A stretch of DNA of 63,904 nt, counting the filler, from Rhizaria sp. SCN 62-66 (Eukaryota), in assembly GCA_001724265.1 (NCBI GenBank). It is 3 parts of 3 records of this genome, joined end to end, with 100 filler letters (N's around TTAATTAATTAA, not from the genome) between each part and the next. Parts side by side here need not be neighbours in the genome. Positions count along the whole stretch, not along the records: positions 18,395 to 45,924 come from MEDY01000478.1; 2 more parts are not named here. One strand, given 5' to 3'. Below the pieces are notes generated by a model that was given only the letters and a program-made list of their open reading frames with translations, searched no databases and had not been told where the DNA came from. Within the stretch, counting starts at the first letter, position 1, and each line of letters starts with the position of its first letter. Below are positions 15,673 to 63,817 of the stretch, piece by piece. The position numbers were made by a program, and so were the translations under genes.

Positions 15673-17112
15673 GACGGCAACAAACATCACCGCCTCAACA
15701 CATGATTTTAAACTAAACCGTGCATTTTCTATATTTTCTCATTGCTATCTTGCGATTCTATCGGGGTTTTCACGTGATTTTCCACGTGTTCTTTGTAGGT
15801 TCCATGCTTGAAGAACTCCCTGTCGACGACTGTTTTTTCGTTGAGGACTTTGTGAATGAGGTGGTAGCCGCCAGCATCGTTCGCGTGACTGAGGACAGCA
15901 TTACCAACAAAGTGCTCAACAAGACCTACACGGTATGTTCCACAGGTGGTCGTGCTTTTTGCCTGGACTGCGGCTACGCGCTCTCAGCCCACCGCCGCAA
16001 GCCCGTCGCCCCCGTCGTCGCCGCCGCCCCCCGCACAGTGTAGTCTAAGGAGGACCTCATGGAGGCCTGCGAGGTCAATACCATGGATGACGCGGATGCG
16101 AGGGAGCTCATTAACAAGTATGGTGGACGTCATTTCAACCCCGACGTGTGTAGGCTCATCAACAATGCCTACAAGAGGCGCCCTGGCACCTCGACACGTT
16201 TCCATTTTACCGATATATCTGCCATTACGTTTAACGAACAATACTTTGATGAGAAAATGCATCCATATATCATGTCCGGGTTAACAATGTCACCGGACGC
16301 TCTTGCATCGTCAAGTTTGTCCCGGTTGACGCCACTGTGTCATCACACATGGAGCTCAAAGTCGCTGAGATGACGCCATCGTGCGCAGACCTCGTGCATT
16401 GCTCCGTCATCCGGGCCAAAGAGTCCATTACGAATAAGGTCGGCATTGTGATGGATTACTTCCCTATCACGGTTGAAAAGAGCACTCCGCACAGGCACGA
16501 CACGCTCACCCGCCGCATCAAGAGTATTGGCGTCGCCCTCGATTTCCTGCACGAGAACTCAATCGCCCACATGGACATCAAGCCGGCCAATATCTTCATC
16601 TCGCAGGAGGGCGAGTGGAAGCTGGGCGACTTTGGCTCTGCCTGCCCCTTTGACAAACCCATTCACTCCACAACAAACCGCTTCCACCTCACTACTACAG
16701 AGCTGGATGTGGCAACGGCACAGATCGACTGGGGCATGCTGCTGTGCACGCTCGCCTTTATCATGAGCCGCGCGGAGGGAGGGGGGTCACAATCGCCTGT
16801 TAAAGTCGCTCAGGACCCGAGCGTCGGCCTTTCTCGCGGACACATGGTCGCAAGCGCGCGGGAAGCGATCCTGGCCACAGCGACGGGCGAGCTCAAGACG
16901 CTTATTGAGGAGTGGAAGGGCAAGGCGGGTTCGAAGTAAGAAATCTCTTTAAAGATCATATTTTATAAATACTATACATGTATTTTGTTGTTACTTTCGT
17001 TCGAGTCGTCATCGACAAACCATCTTCATACAGCTTTCAGTAATACATTTGATCAATCTTAAAGCTAGCTGCATTCACATTGTCACATCACAAATGCCCA
17101 GCAAAAGCATTT
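15673..17112 (+). repeat. Dispersed ~1.45-kb duplication, homologous to 62218-63817 (reverse strand)
   Basis: Similarity covers the kinase ORF and both non-coding flanks (e.g. CAACACATGATTTTAAACTAAACCGTGCATT upstream, CATCTTCATACAGCTT...AAAGCTAGCTG downstream). Confidence 0.92.
15804..16939 (+). pseudogene. Zn-finger-like + divergent protein kinase, copy 1 (frameshifted)
   Basis: HMDIKPANIF and LGDFG motifs. Relative to the 62462-63697 paralog: TAG at 16041-16043 (GAG in paralog), a 1-nt deletion near 16283 and an in-frame deletion before MELKVA. Ends TAA. Confidence 0.85.
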
Positions 17113-18294: not shown

Positions 18295-18394
18295 NNNNNN
18301 NNNNNNNNNNNNNNNNNNNNNNNNNNNNNNNNNNNNNNTTAATTAATTAANNNNNNNNNNNNNNNNNNNNNNNNNNNNNNNNNNNNNNNNNNNN
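18295..18394. other. Artificial contig-joining spacer (44 N + TTAATTAATTAA + 44 N)
   Basis: Exactly 100 nt with a six-frame-stop palindrome. Identical to the spacer at 45925-46024. Confidence 0.97.
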
Positions 18395-19388
18395 GACGCG
18401 TCTGCGCGCAGCGTCGAGCCCGGCGGCCAGCGCGCGGTCGCGAGCCGCCAGCGCGAGCGCGGCGGCGGCGGCGGCGGCGGCGCGCGCGGCGGCGCGGGCC
18501 TGGGCGCCCGCGACAGCCGTGAGACGCGTGTGGCCGCGGAAGAGCGCGGCGATGTCGCTGACGCCCGCGCGCGCGAAGCGGCCCGCGTGGTGCTCGTGCG
18601 CGGCGAGGTAGAAGTGGTGCGGGACGGACCAGCGGTACACGGCCTGGGACTCGAGCCGCGCGCGGACCCCCGCGGCCGTGGCCGAAGCGTTAGTGACGGC
18701 CGCCGCCCAGGCCTCGAGCCCCGCCGCGCGCAGCCGCGCGTGTGCGGCGGTGGACAGCAGGGCCGGCACGGCGCGGCGGGTCTGCGCGGCGCGGTGCGTC
18801 AACAGCAGGTGCAGGCGCGCGATGTGGCGCGAGAGCAGGCGCGCGCGGCGGGCTAACAAGTCGAGCCGCACGCGCTTAAGGCACTAGTCCGCGCGCACGT
18901 AGCCCAGCAGCAGCCCGCGGCGCTGGAGGATGTGGCGCACGTCCGCCTCCGTGATCGGCACGAAGCCGCTGCTGTTGCCGCTGCTGTTGGCCGCGGTCGC
19001 AGTAGCGCTCGCAGGCGCAGTCGTGGTGTTCGCCTTGCTGTTGTTGTTGCTGTTGTTGCTGTTAGTATTGACACTAGCGAGAGTTTGCGCGTGAGCGGTC
19101 TGGTGGCGAGGAACGGGGGAAGCCAAGGCTGGAGACTGAGCATTGACAGCAGATGCAGAGAGTGCATGATTCGCGCCAGTGTTGGAAGCGCCATTGTTGC
19201 TGCTGTTGCTGTTGCCGTTGCCGTTGTTGTTCAGCGCGGCGGCGGCGGAGGGGGAGAATGCGCGCGGCGGCGACAACAGCGACGAAGACGGCAGCGGGGG
19301 AGGCGACACAGGTGCGGGGGACGCGGCCTGACTTCGAGACGTCTGGGTCTGGGTGCCAATCTTGCCGTTTTGCTGCAGCAGCTGATGT

Positions 19389-19423
<35 letters not shown>

Positions 19424-20779
19424 CTGCAATTGTTGATGGGTGGAGTGTGACCGTGGCCAGGAACGAGGGCTGGCGTTGTTCTGAATGAAAGCCGCGTTGT
19501 TCTGAACAAAGGCCGTGTGATTGTTCTGAATGAAGGTCGCATTGCTACTCTGCACAGTACTTAAAGTCTGAGTCTGCAGCTGCTGCTGCTTTGACTGTAA
19601 CTGCGACTGAGATTGCGGCTGCTGCTGCTGCTGCTGCTGTAGTTGCTGTTGCTGTTGCTGTTTCTGTTGTTGCTGCTGGGGGCACAGCAAAGCAAGTCCG
19701 GGGCTAAGCCCGGGGGCTGAGGAGGCTGGCACAGGCTTCTTAGCATTCGTGGTGGTGGCGAACGCACTCGTACTCGCATTGCTACTGCCCTTAGAGGTAT
19801 TAGTGCTGTTGTTGTTGTTGTTGTTATGTGAGGGCGACACAGGGAACAGGTTCCTCACGATAGCCCCGCTGGCACCGGCAGCAGCATTGCTCGCGCCAGA
19901 AGCGGCCTCGCTTGCGCTGTTATGCTGACTGTGACTGCTATTGCTCTCCTGCTCCTGCTTCTGCCGCGGCTGCCCATTGCTGCCGTTGCCGCTCCCATAG
20001 TACTGCTGCGGCGGCAGCGGCTGCGGCTGCGGCAGCGGGCGCGGGGACAGGAGCGGCGCGGCGGCGGCGGCGGCGGCGGCGGGCGTCGAGAGTCTGGGGT
20101 CACACAACGCGTCCAGGTCGAGCTCGGCCTCGGCGCCAGGCACCGTCCCCCACTGGCATCCCCAGCCGCCAGAGCCGGAGCCGGAGACTGTGAGAGCCCC
20201 CGCCTCGCCCATAGTAGCGGCGGCGGCAGTCGCAGGCGCAGCTGAGCCGGCGGCCGCAGCACTGGTACTGGTGAGACTGTGGTTGAGGCTGTTAGAGTTG
20301 TGGCTGCTATTCTGAGCGTGAGAGTGAGCGTTCTGAGTCGGTGAGTTCAAAGGCGTAACTCCCGTGCCCTGCTGCTGCTGCTGTTGTTGCTGGGTTGTCG
20401 CGCCCGCAGCGGCGGCCTCGGCCGGCAGGGGCGCCCAGAGCCGTCCCTCCGCCGCCGCGGCCTCGGCCTCCGTGAGCAGCGGTCGCGCGAGGTGGTAGAG
20501 ATCCAGCAGCGCGAGGCGCAGGGACCGGTCGAGTGCGCTGCGGCGCGCGGGCGGCACGGGCGCGCGCAACAGCGCGGCGGCGCCCGCGGGCGGCGGCGGC
20601 GGCATCGGGCGGGCGGGCGGGCACTCGGGCGCGGACAGCAACGCAGAGCTGAGAAGAGAAGGGAGCTGTTGTGCTGAGTCAAGGCGCGAGGCAGGAGAGA
20701 GGGGAGCCGGCGGTCCAGTGCGCGGCGCTATATCAGGTTGTTTGGGGGTAATACAGCTGTTGGGGGGAATATTGATGCC
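18395..20779 (-). CDS. Large orphan protein with Q/N/S/A low complexity, partial (5' exon unresolved, 3' end in gap); in-frame TAG at 18884-18886
   Basis: Frame is open from about 20779 to the gap except for one TAG (YVRAD*CLKRVRLDLL). About 163 GC3-rich codons follow it. Confidence 0.75.
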
Positions 20780-24864: not shown

Positions 24865-27800
24865 TTAAAGGAACCACTTCATGAGCGGAAGCAGAAGCCT
24901 GGCCATGCGCCCAGCCTTCTTCTCCTCACTCCCCACTGCTTCCACACTATTATCGGCAGTTGCCGCTGCAGATGGCATGGGCCGCGGTGTGGAGTGCGCG
25001 AGAGAGAGCGCCAGGTCGGCCCCCATGCGCCGTGTGAGCGCGGGGGACGTGGTGAGAATCGTCAGTTGGCACTCACTGTCCCGCGACACGCTGCGCTCGC
25101 CTGTTGGAGTGAGATATACAGAGAGAAAACAACGTGGATTAGAGTTTAATAAAATATTATTTGTAGAAATGTTGATTTTTGTGCGCGAATATTGAAATTT
25201 ACATTCGATTTAAGGATGTTATGGCAGTGTAAGTAGCGATTTCAAGTTACGCTTTCAAGTTCGGCATTGGCACAGCCTTTGCGATTGCTATTGCGAGAAT
25301 GAGTTGAACGTACCGAAGTTGGAGCTGCCCACCATAGTCAGCAGCGGCATCGCCGGGTCCAGCGGGCACTGCTCATCATCAGCGTCCCCACGGTCACTTT
25401 GCTGTGCGTTGCTACTACTACTATGACTGTGGGAGGGGGAAGCAACGGGCTGTGCCCACAGTCCCTTGGCGTGGTACGTCCAGTGCGGGCGCGCGTACTC
25501 GAGAACCTGTGACTAACCGTGGGCAGCGCTGGACTAACTGTGGGCATTGGTGCGGCGCAGGAACCGATCGGCCAAGAGCCCGTAGGCGGGGGGGATGGCG
25601 GCCGTGACGCCCTTGGCGTCGGCCCAGCCGTTGGCCTAAAACAGAAATACAAAACACAATAATACGCAATGATATCACAATTATTTGAGATAAAAAATAT
25701 TTATATATCTGATAATTTAATATTTACAAGAGATTATAAAATATTAATAAAAAATACTTCGGTTTTGTTTGAGATATATCACGTTCTACGTAAACGTACC
25801 TGTTTGCTCGCGACGAGGACGCGCACCGCATTGGCAGCGCCGGCGACTGCAGCGGAGACCGCAGAAACGGGAGCAACAAGGCGCGCCACGAGGGCCTGGT
25901 AGGGCGGCGGCATGTTGAAGTACCCCGTCGCAATATGCACCGACACAGCCGCAGCAGGTGATGACGCACTCGCAGTCTCAGCACTTGCACTCGCATTCGT
26001 CAAGCTAGAGTTGGAGCTCGAGCCGAAGCTGTTGTTGTTCCCATGTGTAAGGTTGATGAGATCGTTCATAAGCGCAGTGAACAGCCGCTCATCCTGCCTC
26101 ACGCCGAGGCTGGCCAGCTGCAGCGAGGGGTAAATCACCGTGTCCGTCGCCGCAGCCGCCGTGGCATCAGTGACCGCGGGCGCAGCAATGGCCGTTGCAG
26201 CTGTCGCGGTAGCAGTGAACGGCGGCAGCGGCCCGAGGATGGCCTGCAGGGCGCGCGCAGTGGCTCCAGGGGCGGCGAAAGCAGCGGCGCGGGACTGCGT
26301 CGACAGCGACTGGGCCAAAGCGGGGGCCGCAGACAGCCAGGACCAGTCAGCGGCGACGGCAGATGCGTCGCTAATGTTGTTATTGTGAAAGGGACGACTG
26401 TGGGCGAGCCAAAAGGGGGGGATTTGCGTGTTCATCGAGCCAATGCTCTCCAGCCCACAGTCACTACCACCCTTAGATAAAGCACCCTTAGACTCTGTGA
26501 CCGCATTGCTATCACTCTGAGCACTCTTAATATCGTTGTTGTTTCTGTTGCTGTTGTCGTCGTTAAAGATGAGCGCTGCAGCCGGAGACGCGCTGAGACA
26601 TAGTGCTGTGGCAGCCAAAGCGTCGCAGAGCGGCTTATCTTTGATTAACAGGTAGCGGTCCTGACGCTGCTGGAAGTAGACGTCGCTCAGGTTCGCACCA
26701 CTCATGATCTAAAGCGAAGAGACAAACATGTTGGTTTAGCAACAGGAAGGAACATGAGACAATCAAGTGTGAGAGTTGAGAAGAACATCAGTCCTTATAC
26801 AAAACATACCATTTCAAATTTAAAATTTAAGAAAATACTTCAGTTATATGCATATATATGCGTGTTATAATTGTGAATTATAGCGGAAGACTTACGAGCG
26901 TGTCATCGACGATGTAGAGCTTCATGTGGTGGACAGTGAGGAGCTCGTTCCCGCGCCCGGGGAGGTGTTTCTGCAGCAGGGCCCAGAGACGGCCGCGCAG
27001 GCGCTCGGGCAGGGGCGTCGCAGCGGCAAAAATGTCATCATCACCATCCTCATTGATCGTAGCAGCAGCAACAACAGCAGCAGTCGAACTCGAGCTAGAG
27101 CTAGAGTTAGAGTTTGCGACAGTACGAGTGCTCTGCGAAGTGGTATCAGCAGTTAGAGAGTTATTACCGCTGTTGTCCGTGTTCCTGCGCGGTTCAGCGC
27201 GCGAGTGCCTCAGCGGCGGGGCGAAGAAGGCCGCCGACACGCGCCCCGGATGCCGCTGCGCCAGCTCCGCGCATAGCGACAGCGATGAGTGGCCCGTTTC
27301 CCGGTCCCGGCGGCGGCCGCGCGCGTGGTCGAACATAAGGTGCGCCGTCAGGGCCGGGGCCGCCGCCAGGGACGCGGACAGAGAAGCCAGCAGGGCCCGC
27401 TCGGTCGGGGACGAGCCCAGGTAGAGGGCGCTCAAGAGGACGCGGTGGCGCGCGTTGGCGAGCAAATCCTGCAAATTATGAAAAATAATGCAAACACAAA
27501 ATACAAGAAAAGTTGATTACAACACGTTAAAATACATCAATAAAATTATCACAAAGATTTAGCTAGATATATTTTGATATGAGCGAGATGTCTCAGCAAA
27601 AGCGCGTACGTTGAGGGTGTTATAGAAGTCCTGGGGCGTCTCGATGGCCGTAATGCAGTCGCTGGACACCGGAAACGGCCGCGCATACCGTGACAGCGTC
27701 TGCGCAAGCGTGGGCACAAAGGCTGCGGTGCACGCAGCGGCGGGGTCGCCGGGCGCTCTCGTTGCGGGCGCGCTCTGTGCAGCGGTGAGCGAGGGGGAGA

Positions 27801-43592: not shown

Positions 43593-44899
43593 TCACCCTA
43601 CACGATTGTTGTCGCCAATATGTGCAAGGTCATCAAGCGCCTCAGTACCAGCCCAATTCCAATTCCGGGTGAACCAATCAATATCAGCGGCAAGATTTGT
43701 CGCGCTATTGCGTTGCACACAGAACTGCATACGCAAGTACAAGTCGCCACCTTGGCCCGCACTGAGTGCGCACGTAACCTTGATGAATGAGTTACTGAAT
43801 GTATCATTTGCGCTAGAGTTAGGCACAAGTGTCACCACAAGGTTTGTGCACTCGTAGGTCAACAGCTCAGGGTTGCTAAACAGGTTTTGATCCGGGTTCG
43901 TGTACTGCACGCGGGTGTTGTACGGTGCGACAACGTTGCCGCCGGCGCGCAGTGTGAACTGCGCGGTTTGGCTACCCTTGGCGCTGTCAGCCACAACCTC
44001 GCGTGTGTCAGAGTTATACACAACGTAGCCGTACAAGCTGGGGACATTCACAGTTGGATCGAACGTGTTAATGCACTTAGATTGAGACCCATACAGCACG
44101 GCACAGTCAACGCAGTAGCGACCGCCAAAGAATGCAGGGCGCACTCGTTGATGTCCTGGCCCGAAGGCTCTGCAGGCAGCCACGACCCTGTTTTAGCACA
44201 GCGGCGCTCAAAAGATGACGAGTCGTCAGTGAAGGTGAGGCCGGACTGGCATTTGTAGACAGCGCGTGATTGGTAGCGTGTGGGGCCAGAAACGAAGAGA
44301 GGATCGTAGTTGTACGTCACAGGCATGCCATACTTGATCCGACCAGCCAGCCCAAGCTGACCGCAGTTCATCGCGCTGCACCCGGGTGCAACGGTGGGAA
44401 TCCAGCCGTCAGCAAGAGTGCCGCAACGGCGTGTCGAAGCGATGGCTGCATCCGTGAACGCGTCACGAGTTTCGTAGCCCGGGCTGGCACGAGTATGTTG
44501 CAACAGTACCGTAAGAACGTGGAATACCGCCGTTTTGCCTGTGTTAAGCGCGTCGCGGTAGGTGATGTTGACGCCGTGAGCGGGAACAAACAAGTTCTCG
44601 CATTGGTTGACCTGGCACTGGGGCGCGGACAAGGGGAACCAACCGCGCGGAGTACACTCGCGACGAGCGGCTGTGACACGTCCGTTCGATTGGGTGATTT
44701 CAACAACATAACCGGCCCCATCTGTGACGTCGTATCCCGTGTAGCGCAGATTGTAGCCTATGTTGCAGCGGTTCTCAACCCAAGATGTGTTCAAATACGG
44801 ACCGTGATTGCCGTTGTTAGCGACTGCGATTGTTGCGCCATTGATGTTCGTAGGGACTCCACAGTTGTAAGGCGAGCACGTCCGTGGTGAGGAAGCAAA
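43593..44899 (-). pseudogene. Fragment of an extracellular sushi/CCP + Ca-binding EGF + IPT-like protein
   Basis: Repeated C..P / Y.C..GY / RRC...G.W.P.C units and QDINEC...CINT. Frameshifts near 44530, 44480 and 44140. No start codon or signal peptide. Confidence 0.8.
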
Positions 44900-45440
44900 C
44901 TAATAGTTCTCGAACTCACCTTTGAATTCACTACCGTTGTCGCATGGTATAACAGCATGCTTTCGTGGTAGTCGTTTCAAGATACTACGTATAATCGCAT
45001 CCCTAACATTTTCGGTGCTCTTGCTCTCCGTCCCGGTGCAAATCTCACACTCTGCGTGTTTGGTGTGCTGATCGATACACGTCAGAATGTATTACGGCTT
45101 TTTTGTTCGGATAATCAATTCATGTTTCCATTGTTTTGGTGTAATGGTAAGGTCAATCTCCACGATATGAAAGGGACTCATTGAGATATCCTTCTTGATT
45201 GCCGACTGACGACTGCGATGCGGCCGTTTTGTTTGTACGTAAAAATAACATCATCTTTTGCATAGTTAGCGCGAACATCATTCAAACTTATGTTCTCATA
45301 GATCTTACGTAGTACGTGTGTATATGTCCCTCTCATTGTGATTGCTGTCTCCTCTTTGAAACGTTCAATGATGTTATCAATCTGATCCATTGGTGCTACT
45401 GCCTTCCCTGTATTTCGTCGAATTACGTGCCCTTTGAGGA
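44900..45440 (-). mobile_element. Degenerate retroviral-type (rve, DDE) integrase fragment
   Basis: Translates as KAVAPMDQIDNIIERF...TYTHVLRKIYENISLNDV / SPFHIVEIDL...*YILTCIDQHTKHA...IPCDNGSEFKGEF. Frameshift near 45235, TAA at 45094-45092, truncated before the catalytic Glu. AT-rich relative to host genes. Confidence 0.85.
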
Positions 45441-45924: not shown

Positions 45925-46024
45925 NNNNNNNNNNNNNNNNNNNNNNNNNNNNNNNNNNNNNNNNNNNNTTAATTAATTAANNNNNNNNNNNNNNNNNNNN
46001 NNNNNNNNNNNNNNNNNNNNNNNN
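45925..46024. other. Artificial contig-joining spacer (44 N + TTAATTAATTAA + 44 N)
   Basis: Same structure as 18295-18394. Confidence 0.97.
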
Positions 46025-62217: not shown

Positions 62218-63817
62218 AAATGCTTTTGCCGAGCATTTGTGATGTGATAATGTGAATACAGCTAGCTTTCATAATGATCAAACGTATTCGAAGCTGTATG
62301 AAGATGATTTGTCGAAGACGACTATAACGAAACCTTACACACTTACATTTGAACTTATGATAAACACCTAACGTAGCACAAGCTAAAAACAACAACATAC
62401 TACTGTAACAACAAAAACAACAAAAACAACATAATATATATAAATAAAAATAAGATCTCTCTTATTTCGAACCCGCCTTGCCCCTCCACTCCTCAATAAG
62501 CGTCTTGAGCTCGCCCGTCGCTGTAGCCAGGATCTCTTCCCGCGCGCTTGCAATCATATGTCCGCGATACATGCCAAGGTTCGCACCATGAGCGAGAATA
62601 ACAGGTGAGTGTGTCCCGTCTTCCCCGCGGCTCATGATGAAGGCGAGCGTGCACAGCAGCATGCCCCAGTCGATCTGTGCCGTTGCCACATCCAGCTCTG
62701 TCGTAGTGAGGTGGAAGCCGTTTGTCGTGGAGTGAATGGGTTTGTCAAATGGGCAGGCAGAGTCAAAGTCGCCCAGCTTCCACGCGCCATCCTGCGAGAT
62801 GAAGATATTGGCGGGCTTGATGTCCATGTGGGCGATTGAGTTCTCGTGCAGGAAATCGAGGGCGACGCCAATACTCTTGATGCGGCGGGCGAGCGTGTCG
62901 TGCTTGCGCGGAGCGCCCTTTTCAGCCGTGAGAGGGAAGTAATCCATCACAATGCCGTTCTTAGTCGCAGTGAACAGGACTTGGTTGTTGCCTGAGCTGA
63001 TAGTGGACTCTTTAGCCCGGAAGACGGAGCAATGCACAAGGTCTGTGCATGATGGCGTCATCTAAGCGACTTTGAGCTCCATTCGTGCTCGAAAGAGTCT
63101 GAGCTGGTGCTCGTTGCCGGGTTGCGGGTGCGGGGGGGTAGTCGTGCCGGAGGACACAGCGTCGACCGGGACGAACTTAACGATGCAAGGGCGTCCGGTG
63201 GCATTGTCAAACCCGGACATGATACATGGATGCTTTTGCTCGTCAAAAAATCCGCTCAGCGTAATGGCAGACATATCGGTAAAATGGAAGCGTGTCGAGG
63301 TGCCAGCGCGCATCATCATGGCGGCGTAGGCATTGCTGATCCTCCGACACACGTCGGAGTTGAAATGACTTCGACCAAACTTGTCAAGAAGCTCATCCGC
63401 ATCCGCGTTAGACATCTTATTGACCTTGCAGGCCTCCATGATGTCCTCCTTCGACTCCACTGTGCGGGGGGCGGCGACGGGGGCGACGACGAGGGCGACG
63501 GGCCTGCGGCGGTGGGCTGAGAGCGCGTAGCTGCACTCTGTGCAAAAAGTACGACCACCAGTGGAACATGCCGTGTAGGGCCTGTTGAGCATTTTGTTGG
63601 TAACGCTGTCATCAGTCACGCGAACGAGGCTGGCGGCGGCCACATCCAAGAAGTCCTCAACGAAGAAGCAGTTGTCGACAGGGCGTTCTTCAAGCATGGA
63701 ACCTACAAAAAACACGTGAAAAATCCGACAGAATCGCGAGATAGTTATGAGAAAATATGAGGAATGCACGGTTTAGTTTAAAATCATGTGTTGATGCGGT
63801 GATGTTGTGTTACCGTC
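62218..63817 (-). repeat. Second copy of the dispersed kinase-bearing duplication (partner 15673-17112)
   Basis: Coding and flanking similarity to copy 1. Confidence 0.92.
62462..63697 (-). CDS. Zn-finger-like + divergent protein kinase, copy 2; 411 aa if the single TAG at 63064-63062 is read (possible upstream mini-exon 63829-63814)
   Basis: ORFs 63062-63769 and 62462-63061 are in one frame, separated only by TAG (GAG in copy 1). Motifs C-x7-C-x2-C-x6-H, CIVKFV, HMDIKPANIF, LGDFD. Ends TAA. Confidence 0.75.

Follow-up and report, generated by a model that had tools for sequence, protein, structure and literature searches.

The question raised by this locus is whether the TAG at 18884-18886 of the window (the whole stretch of DNA analysed here, 63,904 nucleotides, from a eukaryotic assembly of 34.9 Mb in 714 contigs) ends a protein or lies within one. 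An earlier note had claimed that this single in-frame TAG splits one continuous coding region and is an independent instance of UAG as a sense codon. In this study, the TAG appears to be one instance of a genome-wide recoding of UAG, with UAA and UGA remaining as stops. The features around it are as follows.

18884-18886, minus strand: TAG in the open frame, taken as a sense codon (probably Glu), in ...GYVRAD[E]CLKRVRLDLL... (from the frame, the contigs and the genome-wide code).
18395-18883, minus strand: 163 coding codons behind the TAG, stopped by the contig end (GC3 0.94, two homologous fragments).
18590-18637, minus strand: conserved motif YRWSVPHHFYLAAHEH, assigned to no family (YRWSxPHHFFLAAHEH in the proteins P0121 and P0122).
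18887-20649, minus strand: coding stretch ahead of the TAG, mostly Q/N/A-rich low complexity (frame analysis).
18295-18394, no strand: artificial linker N44-TTAATTAATTAA-N44 joining separate contigs, outside the gene.

The minus-strand frame is open from 20779 to the TAG at 18886-18884 and goes on with TGC CTT AAG CGC GTG for 163 further open codons to 18395, with a GC3 of 0.94, so that the continuous frame, the single TAG (TAG TGC CTT AAG CGC) and the roughly 163 GC3-rich codons of the earlier note all stand. Its statement that these codons run up to the gap holds for their extent to 18395, but the gap is the artificial linker; the same linker lies at 45925-46024, and the flanking contigs are not real neighbours. 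Contig C478 covers 18395-45924, and the 3' end of the gene is missing because the contig begins at 18395. The first in-frame ATG of the stretch ahead of the TAG is at 20605 (minus strand), and a pyrimidine-rich CAG just above 20649 may be a candidate 3' splice site for an unmapped upstream exon. The first 90 bases past the TAG have 70% GC, compared with 36-51% behind the gene-like ends found in 8 of the 16 window ORFs examined, in agreement with the claim that true 3' UTRs turn AT-richer; these ends are TGA (n=4) and TAA (n=4), with TAG at none of them.

A search of 1.84 billion proteins with the peptide of the site returned three matches, two real downstream fragments and one repeat artefact. 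The fragments P0121 (E 1.7e-7) and P0122 (E 1.1e-6) carry YRWSxPHHFFLAAHEH and match sequence downstream of the TAG without covering it. No Pfam family was found for the peptide around the TAG, and longer proteins, searched by alignment, yielded no homolog spanning it. The profile search of the joined peptide that the earlier note had proposed therefore yielded conserved downstream sequence but neither a family nor a residue aligned to the TAG, and with no covering homolog found, the site by itself gives no residue. A single-sequence fold, with a pLDDT of 57 too weak to rely on, places the TAG residue within one long helix.

DNA support for the TAG was checked in independent contigs. The contigs of run X1 (18495-19369; X1 may be the source of the assembly) and of run X4 (18821-19369, another study) bridge the TAG with 0 differing letters, and that of run X3 (18865-19369) is identical too and ends 19 bases beyond it; the three runs belong to three studies, with the same base at the TAG across differing studies and years. 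The chance of a sequencing or assembly error is practically negligible: the site stands 490 bases from a contig end in a metagenome assembly, but the contigs from three runs and three studies are identical, two of them fully bridging, and the 32:2:2 preference for TAG over TAA and TGA counted below is not one that errors would produce.

For this one TAG it is very improbable, whatever holds for the rest of the genome, that it marks a genuine stop, that it is a nonsense allele of one strain or that a short intron ends in it. In favour of such readings, GT..TAG intervals of 15, 57 and 78 bases lie in frame near the site, many TAGs flagged in Pfam matches of this genome proved to be intron ends, and among the data searched no RNA piece or homolog crosses the TAG (among the pieces listed from RNA run X7 none lies over it, and X7, which holds a small share of words, is no evidence for expression or habitat). 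The absence of intron-like sequence claimed earlier thus needs qualification, since such intervals formally exist, but at 73-74% GC they are unlike three genuine introns of the same genome (134-293 bases, 37-52% GC). Both flanks are also coding-like and GC-rich, the same base occurs in samples from different studies and years, and the downstream peptide is conserved. On the sequence evidence, the TAG is real and inside coding sequence, because the contigs agree, the downstream peptide is conserved and the GT..TAG intervals do not resemble introns.

Whether the site is part of a wider pattern was addressed with a stop-codon census of about 0.93 Mb of loci from the same genome plus the window, overlaps counted, which amounts to less than 3% of the genome. 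Most of the loci read were blind 10-kb stretches, and about 15 short loci were chosen for a TAG that a search had pointed out. With a codon model trained on long open frames, the first stop behind a run of 100 or more coding-like codons was examined; reading goes on past 19 of 23 TAG, 0 of 69 TAA and 0 of 64 TGA, and only one of the 19 (L114) had been chosen for its TAG. Among the remaining four TAGs, one lies behind a splice-donor-like motif, one is directly followed by TAA and two are undecided, and in this sample of less than 3% of the genome at most one of the 23 is a candidate gene-ending TAG, with TAA immediately after it. A looser screen for stops with 60 coding codons on either side gave 32 TAG, 2 TAA and 2 TGA, the TAA and TGA cases being borderline. 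UAG is rare: under conservative screens, 41 sites (43 minus two doubtful ones, the set used in the context tests) stand against about 7,000 GAG and GAA codons, or about 0.5% of Glu codons. The earlier reading of UAG as sense is thus supported at the site by open, GC3-rich and conserved sequence and by independent DNA, and far more strongly genome-wide; that UAG is a sense codon in this genome we regard as nearly certain.

In-frame TAGs also occur within conserved coding sequence, namely in that of eRF1, FAP21, Cdc25, UBE2J, Med21, MORN and a USP5-like protein and four kinase domains. Among 137 kinase matches a lone TAG was found in nine, five of them exonic, three intron ends and one probably an intron end. 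No exonic TAG was found among 52 kinesin, 43 DEAD, 36 Ras, 20 ABC, 12 dynein, 21 SNF2 and 147 WD40 matches. Many of the TAGs noted inside Pfam matches were rejected as intron ends and left uncounted (L110, L111, L118, probably L117, L137, L138, L221 and dynein pieces).

Some further TAGs were observed in the course of this work. On the minus strand at window 25513-25536, a short coding-like exon contains a pair of in-frame TAGs with a spacing of seven codons (NAHS*SSAAHG*SQVLEY), which are candidate sense UAGs. A Cdc25-like gene on the minus strand of L159 (G000:C32:10001-11800) has four in-frame TAGs, the densest cluster encountered, in a stretch of about 1.2 kb. In L213 (G000:C681) a TAG-bearing ubiquitin domain is fused inside a longer ORF, the tail of which presumably resembles the intramolecular chaperone domain of viral fibres. 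At window 44048-45091 (minus strand) a frame links weak matches to integrase (rve) and Sushi across a TAG; this may be a decayed element beside a host exon and not one protein.

The residue encoded by UAG was approached through homologs that cover a TAG. At the FAP21/EFHB site (8 matches) the aligned residue is Glu in five of the five alignments listed, within the motif NYG[ND]E; at the Cdc25 site it is Glu in all five listed, all of them human CDC25B/C, and at the UBE2J site the five listed have D, S, D, S and E (3/5 acidic). A small kinase-like family, with copies in the window at 15717-16939 (plus strand) and 62462-63772 (minus strand) and also in L220 (C98), shows two reciprocal exchanges of TAG and GAG in a paralog alignment:

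16041-16043, plus strand: TAG in kinase-like paralog A, GAG in paralog B.
63062-63064, minus strand: TAG in kinase-like paralog B (436-codon frame), GAG in paralog A.

Copy A is frameshifted near 16285, and two more paralogs have R at one of the swapped sites. One C98 copy carries a further in-frame TAG. Summed over nine sites, Pfam bit scores were 749.1 for E, 748.3 for K, 747.9 for Q, 740.2 for S, 733.1 for L, 733.1 for Y and 726.4 for W, which places L, Y, W and S 9-23 bits under E and leaves E, K and Q within 1.2 bits of each other. Leucine, as in the rhizarian exLh, was rejected on these sums (L 16 bits below E over the nine sites) and on a pattern search that gave no long-arm CUA tRNA. 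Other sites are less clear: E scores below K, L and Q at the MORN site, the CaMK-like site is uninformative (Y or A in five PDB alignments listed; E 6, A 5 and D 4 of 22 paralogs), as is the USP5-like TAG, which falls within an alignment gap region, and no PDB match was found for the Med21 site.

A pattern search for tRNAs with a CUA anticodon gave seven candidates, one of which is a tRNA:

C84:76008-76080 (L130 1489-1561), minus strand: tRNA(CUA) gene, single-copy.

The gene is followed by a T run, and its neighbours are ordinary intron-bearing host genes. Further pattern searches found, among the forms that their patterns cover, no long-arm or intron-bearing CUA tRNA, and no UUA tRNA among intron-free short-arm tRNAs, in an assembly that may be incomplete. 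With 47/73 identical positions the tRNA(CUA) is closest to the genome's own Glu(CUC) among 24 other isoacceptor types; identity to its own Lys tRNAs is 39/73 and 34/73, and to its own Gln tRNAs, the least similar in the Glu/Gln/Lys comparison, 33/73 and 29/73. A TCCCA/TGGGA acceptor stem is common to tRNA(CUA) and both own Glu tRNAs, and the T stem equals that of Glu(CUC). The best BLAST matches, weak ones in phages and E. coli, are annotated as tRNA-Glu, and many bacterial tRNA-Glu genes have exactly the same D arm. Identities of up to 55/73 with bacterial tRNAs are partly circular because the search pattern was built from the D arm of tRNA(CUA) and admitted only CTC, TTC, CTA and TTA anticodons. 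By its D arm, the gene might be a tRNA-Glu(CUA) of foreign or organellar origin; acceptor and T stems match the host's tRNA-Glu. The ARAGORN label 'Pyl' follows the anticodon alone, and the cloverleaf is an ordinary Glu-type one. A code in which both UAR codons mean Glu, or one of the PL0344 type, was rejected, with UAA not read on (0/69) and no UUA tRNA by pattern.

The reading of UAG as glutamine throughout the genome, the meaning it has in Iotanema spirale and two phyllopharyngean ciliates, or as a mixture of Glu and Gln, is improbable. Glutamine-rich contexts surround 8 of 41 TAGs (20%), compared with 3.5% of GAGs and 31% of CAGs, and the residues beside TAG fit those of CAG better than those of GAG by about 8 log units. 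In a ubiquitin fusion the TAG stands opposite a CAG of the genome's ubiquitin, the MORN site prefers Q over E, and among known changes UAG=Gln is the commonest (PMC11687900). On the other hand, the body of the sole CUA tRNA found is that of a Glu tRNA, with Gln tRNAs the least similar, while the conserved sites have E in the five FAP21 alignments listed, E in Cdc25, E or D in eRF1 and two exchanges with GAG; no column of conserved Q was found at a TAG among the aligned sites (one paralog pair has CAG/TAG), and the contexts reach the CAG level part-way (p 0.07 for TAG vs CAG). We infer that the conserved sites reveal the meaning of the codon, Glu, and that unconstrained Q-rich tracts reveal the commonest mutation, CAG to TAG. 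A Glu meaning combined with CAG to TAG mutation in Q-rich tracts would therefore give intermediate context statistics, as seen. Taken together, homologs, paralogs and tRNA make glutamate the likely meaning of UAG, for which the earlier note had given no residue; that it stands for some other residue or is not sense at all is quite improbable.

Further evidence comes from the release factor. A search of the genome for eRF1 gave three matches, including one eRF1 gene and one Pelota. The eRF1 gene (L032, G000:C63) has an in-frame TAG at locus 1594-1596 on the minus strand, in the N domain and in a region with a GC3 of 0.97, and the TAG is also present in an identical JGI contig. It aligns to human E107, in a column where 108 of 116 homologs have E and the other 8 have D. 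Against Glu, the closest relative, P0004 (84%), has V at 107, which makes the column a relaxed one in this clade. As eRF1 is an essential protein and one cut at residue 107 could not work, this TAG is the strongest single case. The substitutions T32S, M34V, G57S and T58K, each present in 0 of the 116 homologs, fall in the GTS and (TAS)NIKS regions, which are stop-recognition motifs; P0004 has M34V and T58K, without T32S or G57S. Thr32 bonds the G of UAG and is replaced in Iotanema (T32G), as stated in PMC5304391 and repeated in PMC9161772. Here T32S keeps the hydroxyl, and its effect may be mild. A metagenome scan with eRF1 gave 32 loci, one identical (1626/1626, possibly from the same source) and 31 distant (44-69%), with no eRF1 DNA of a close relative among the 32. 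Two unrelated metagenomic eRF1 sequences (L192 and L193) have an in-frame TAA and probably belong to UAR-recoding ciliates. A recoded UAG thus occurs inside eRF1 itself, while other highly conserved families surveyed had none.

A further alternative, which we consider unlikely, is that UAG is a weak stop partly suppressed by tRNA-Glu(CUA), an ambiguous intermediate in which genes with TAG, eRF1 among them, give full-length and truncated products. The single tRNA gene, the small share of UAG among Glu codons (about 0.5%) and the lack of exonic TAG in the kinesin, DEAD, Ras, ABC, dynein, SNF2 and WD40 matches would fit such a state, as would the depletion of G behind TAG relative to GAG (6/41, p 0.001), true stops being followed mostly by G or A. 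However, at most one of 23 TAGs could end a gene, with TAA directly after it, the pattern at +4 is no different from that after CAG, and rarity is expected of any recent clean capture. This explanation moreover fits Glu as the residue and is hence only partly a rival.

We propose, as the probable reading, a variant nuclear code in which UAG encodes glutamate and UAA and UGA are stops, and in which the TAG at 18884-18886 would be an ordinary Glu codon of one long protein. GluRS would charge the tRNA(CUA), the altered eRF1 would bind UAG poorly so that the tRNA wins, and the CUA anticodon would be unable to pair with UAA, so that UAA stays a stop. UAG, a rare codon, would arise from GAG by a synonymous change at conserved sites, and in Q-rich low-complexity regions from CAG by a C-to-T mutation with a tolerated Q-to-E change. 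A more specific and doubtful version is that the code change is at an early stage in a GC-rich nucleus, with tRNA-Glu(CUA) competing with an eRF1 partly blind to UAG and the UAG of eRF1 itself acting as a feedback loop that sets the level of the release factor. The in-frame UAG in eRF1 would then be a putative device of autoregulation, to be likened to the internal stop of bacterial RF2. Autoregulation of plant eRF1 has been reported (PMC5397192).

If true, this would be a nuclear code not found in the literature searched, with UAG for Glu and two stops, UAA and UGA, in a non-model protist with both tRNA and eRF1 genes known. The four named substitutions, together with the relative P0004, which has some of them but not all, would make it possible to test directly how eRF1 tells UAG from UAA, and a natural eRF1 blind to UAG and competent for UAA and UGA would be of direct use for amber suppression. 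The code would have arisen in a GC-rich genome, contrary to the route by AT pressure proposed for Blastocrithidia. Standard annotation will split a share of the genes of this organism, eRF1 among them.

As to the organism, the runs with at least half of the words come from bioreactor and wastewater metagenomes or carry no label, and flagellar genes (dyneins, FAP21) are present. The best named unfused match of DDX47 is Bigelowiella. In a DDX47 tree of 53 rows chosen from about 120, built by a quick method, the own sequence groups in a clade with seven environmental proteins, which a branch with SH-aLRT 92 puts on the side of the chlorarachniophytes, and no named sister was found among the 53 rows. 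The ubiquitin genes (L211-L216) are divergent and begin with MSMQIF, which we take to recall the rhizarian junction insertion; among them are several monomers that end in a short HPQ tail and two genes truncated by contig ends, and no polyubiquitin junction was found in these loci. The SSU rDNA on C706 (L035, G000:C706:4459-8903) is very divergent, has four group I introns and to our eye looks heterolobosean; it may be mis-binned, from an organism other than that of the nuclear contigs. An ORF with a His-Cys pattern lies in the first of these introns and is presumably like homing endonucleases. Dactylomonas venusta (Heterolobosea) reportedly reads nuclear UAG as Gln, as Panek et al. are said to have described in 2025; it is a case of UAG recoded in a non-ciliate protist, but with Gln where Glu is the likely residue here, and is relevant if the C706 rDNA is the organism's own and heterolobosean.

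Codes in which UAG alone is reassigned are known from nuclei. UAG means Leu in the rhizarian exLh and Gln in Iotanema spirale (PMC5304391), Leu in phyllopharyngean MAGs, Gln in Hartmannula and Trochilia and Ser in Scotinosphaera, as cited in PMC11687900. The present code is like these in having UAG as sense, UAA and UGA as stops and a tRNA with a CUA anticodon, and like that of Iotanema in a changed Thr32 of eRF1 (T32G there, T32S here); it differs in its residue, which seems to be Glu, in the great rarity of UAG, in the GC-richness of the genome and in that tRNA gene and eRF1 are both known. The literature searched, which covers few subscription journals, yielded no description of a code with UAG=Glu in which UAA and UGA both remain stops. 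In the sources cited, UAG=Glu is known only where UAA is also recoded, and the known UAG-only codes are Leu, Gln and Ser. Oligohymenophorea sp. PL0344 reads UAA as Lys and UAG as Glu, with UGA as the only stop, and has ten CUA tRNA genes that are 69-93% like tRNA-Glu (PMC10553269). The genome studied here probably shares with it UAG=Glu by a tRNA-Glu-like tRNA(CUA), but UAA is a stop and there is one CUA tRNA gene, 64% like the own tRNA-Glu(CUC). In peritrich ciliates and Blastocrithidia both UAR codons, UAA included, mean Glu, and Blastocrithidia has a tRNA-Glu(CUA) and a code change ascribed to AT-biased pressure (PMC11687900, PMC12153298). UAG=Glu is probably shared with these lineages, while here UAA is not recoded and no UUA tRNA was found by the pattern search; and in contrast to the AT pressure of Blastocrithidia, the GC3 of coding sequence here is about 0.7-0.9.
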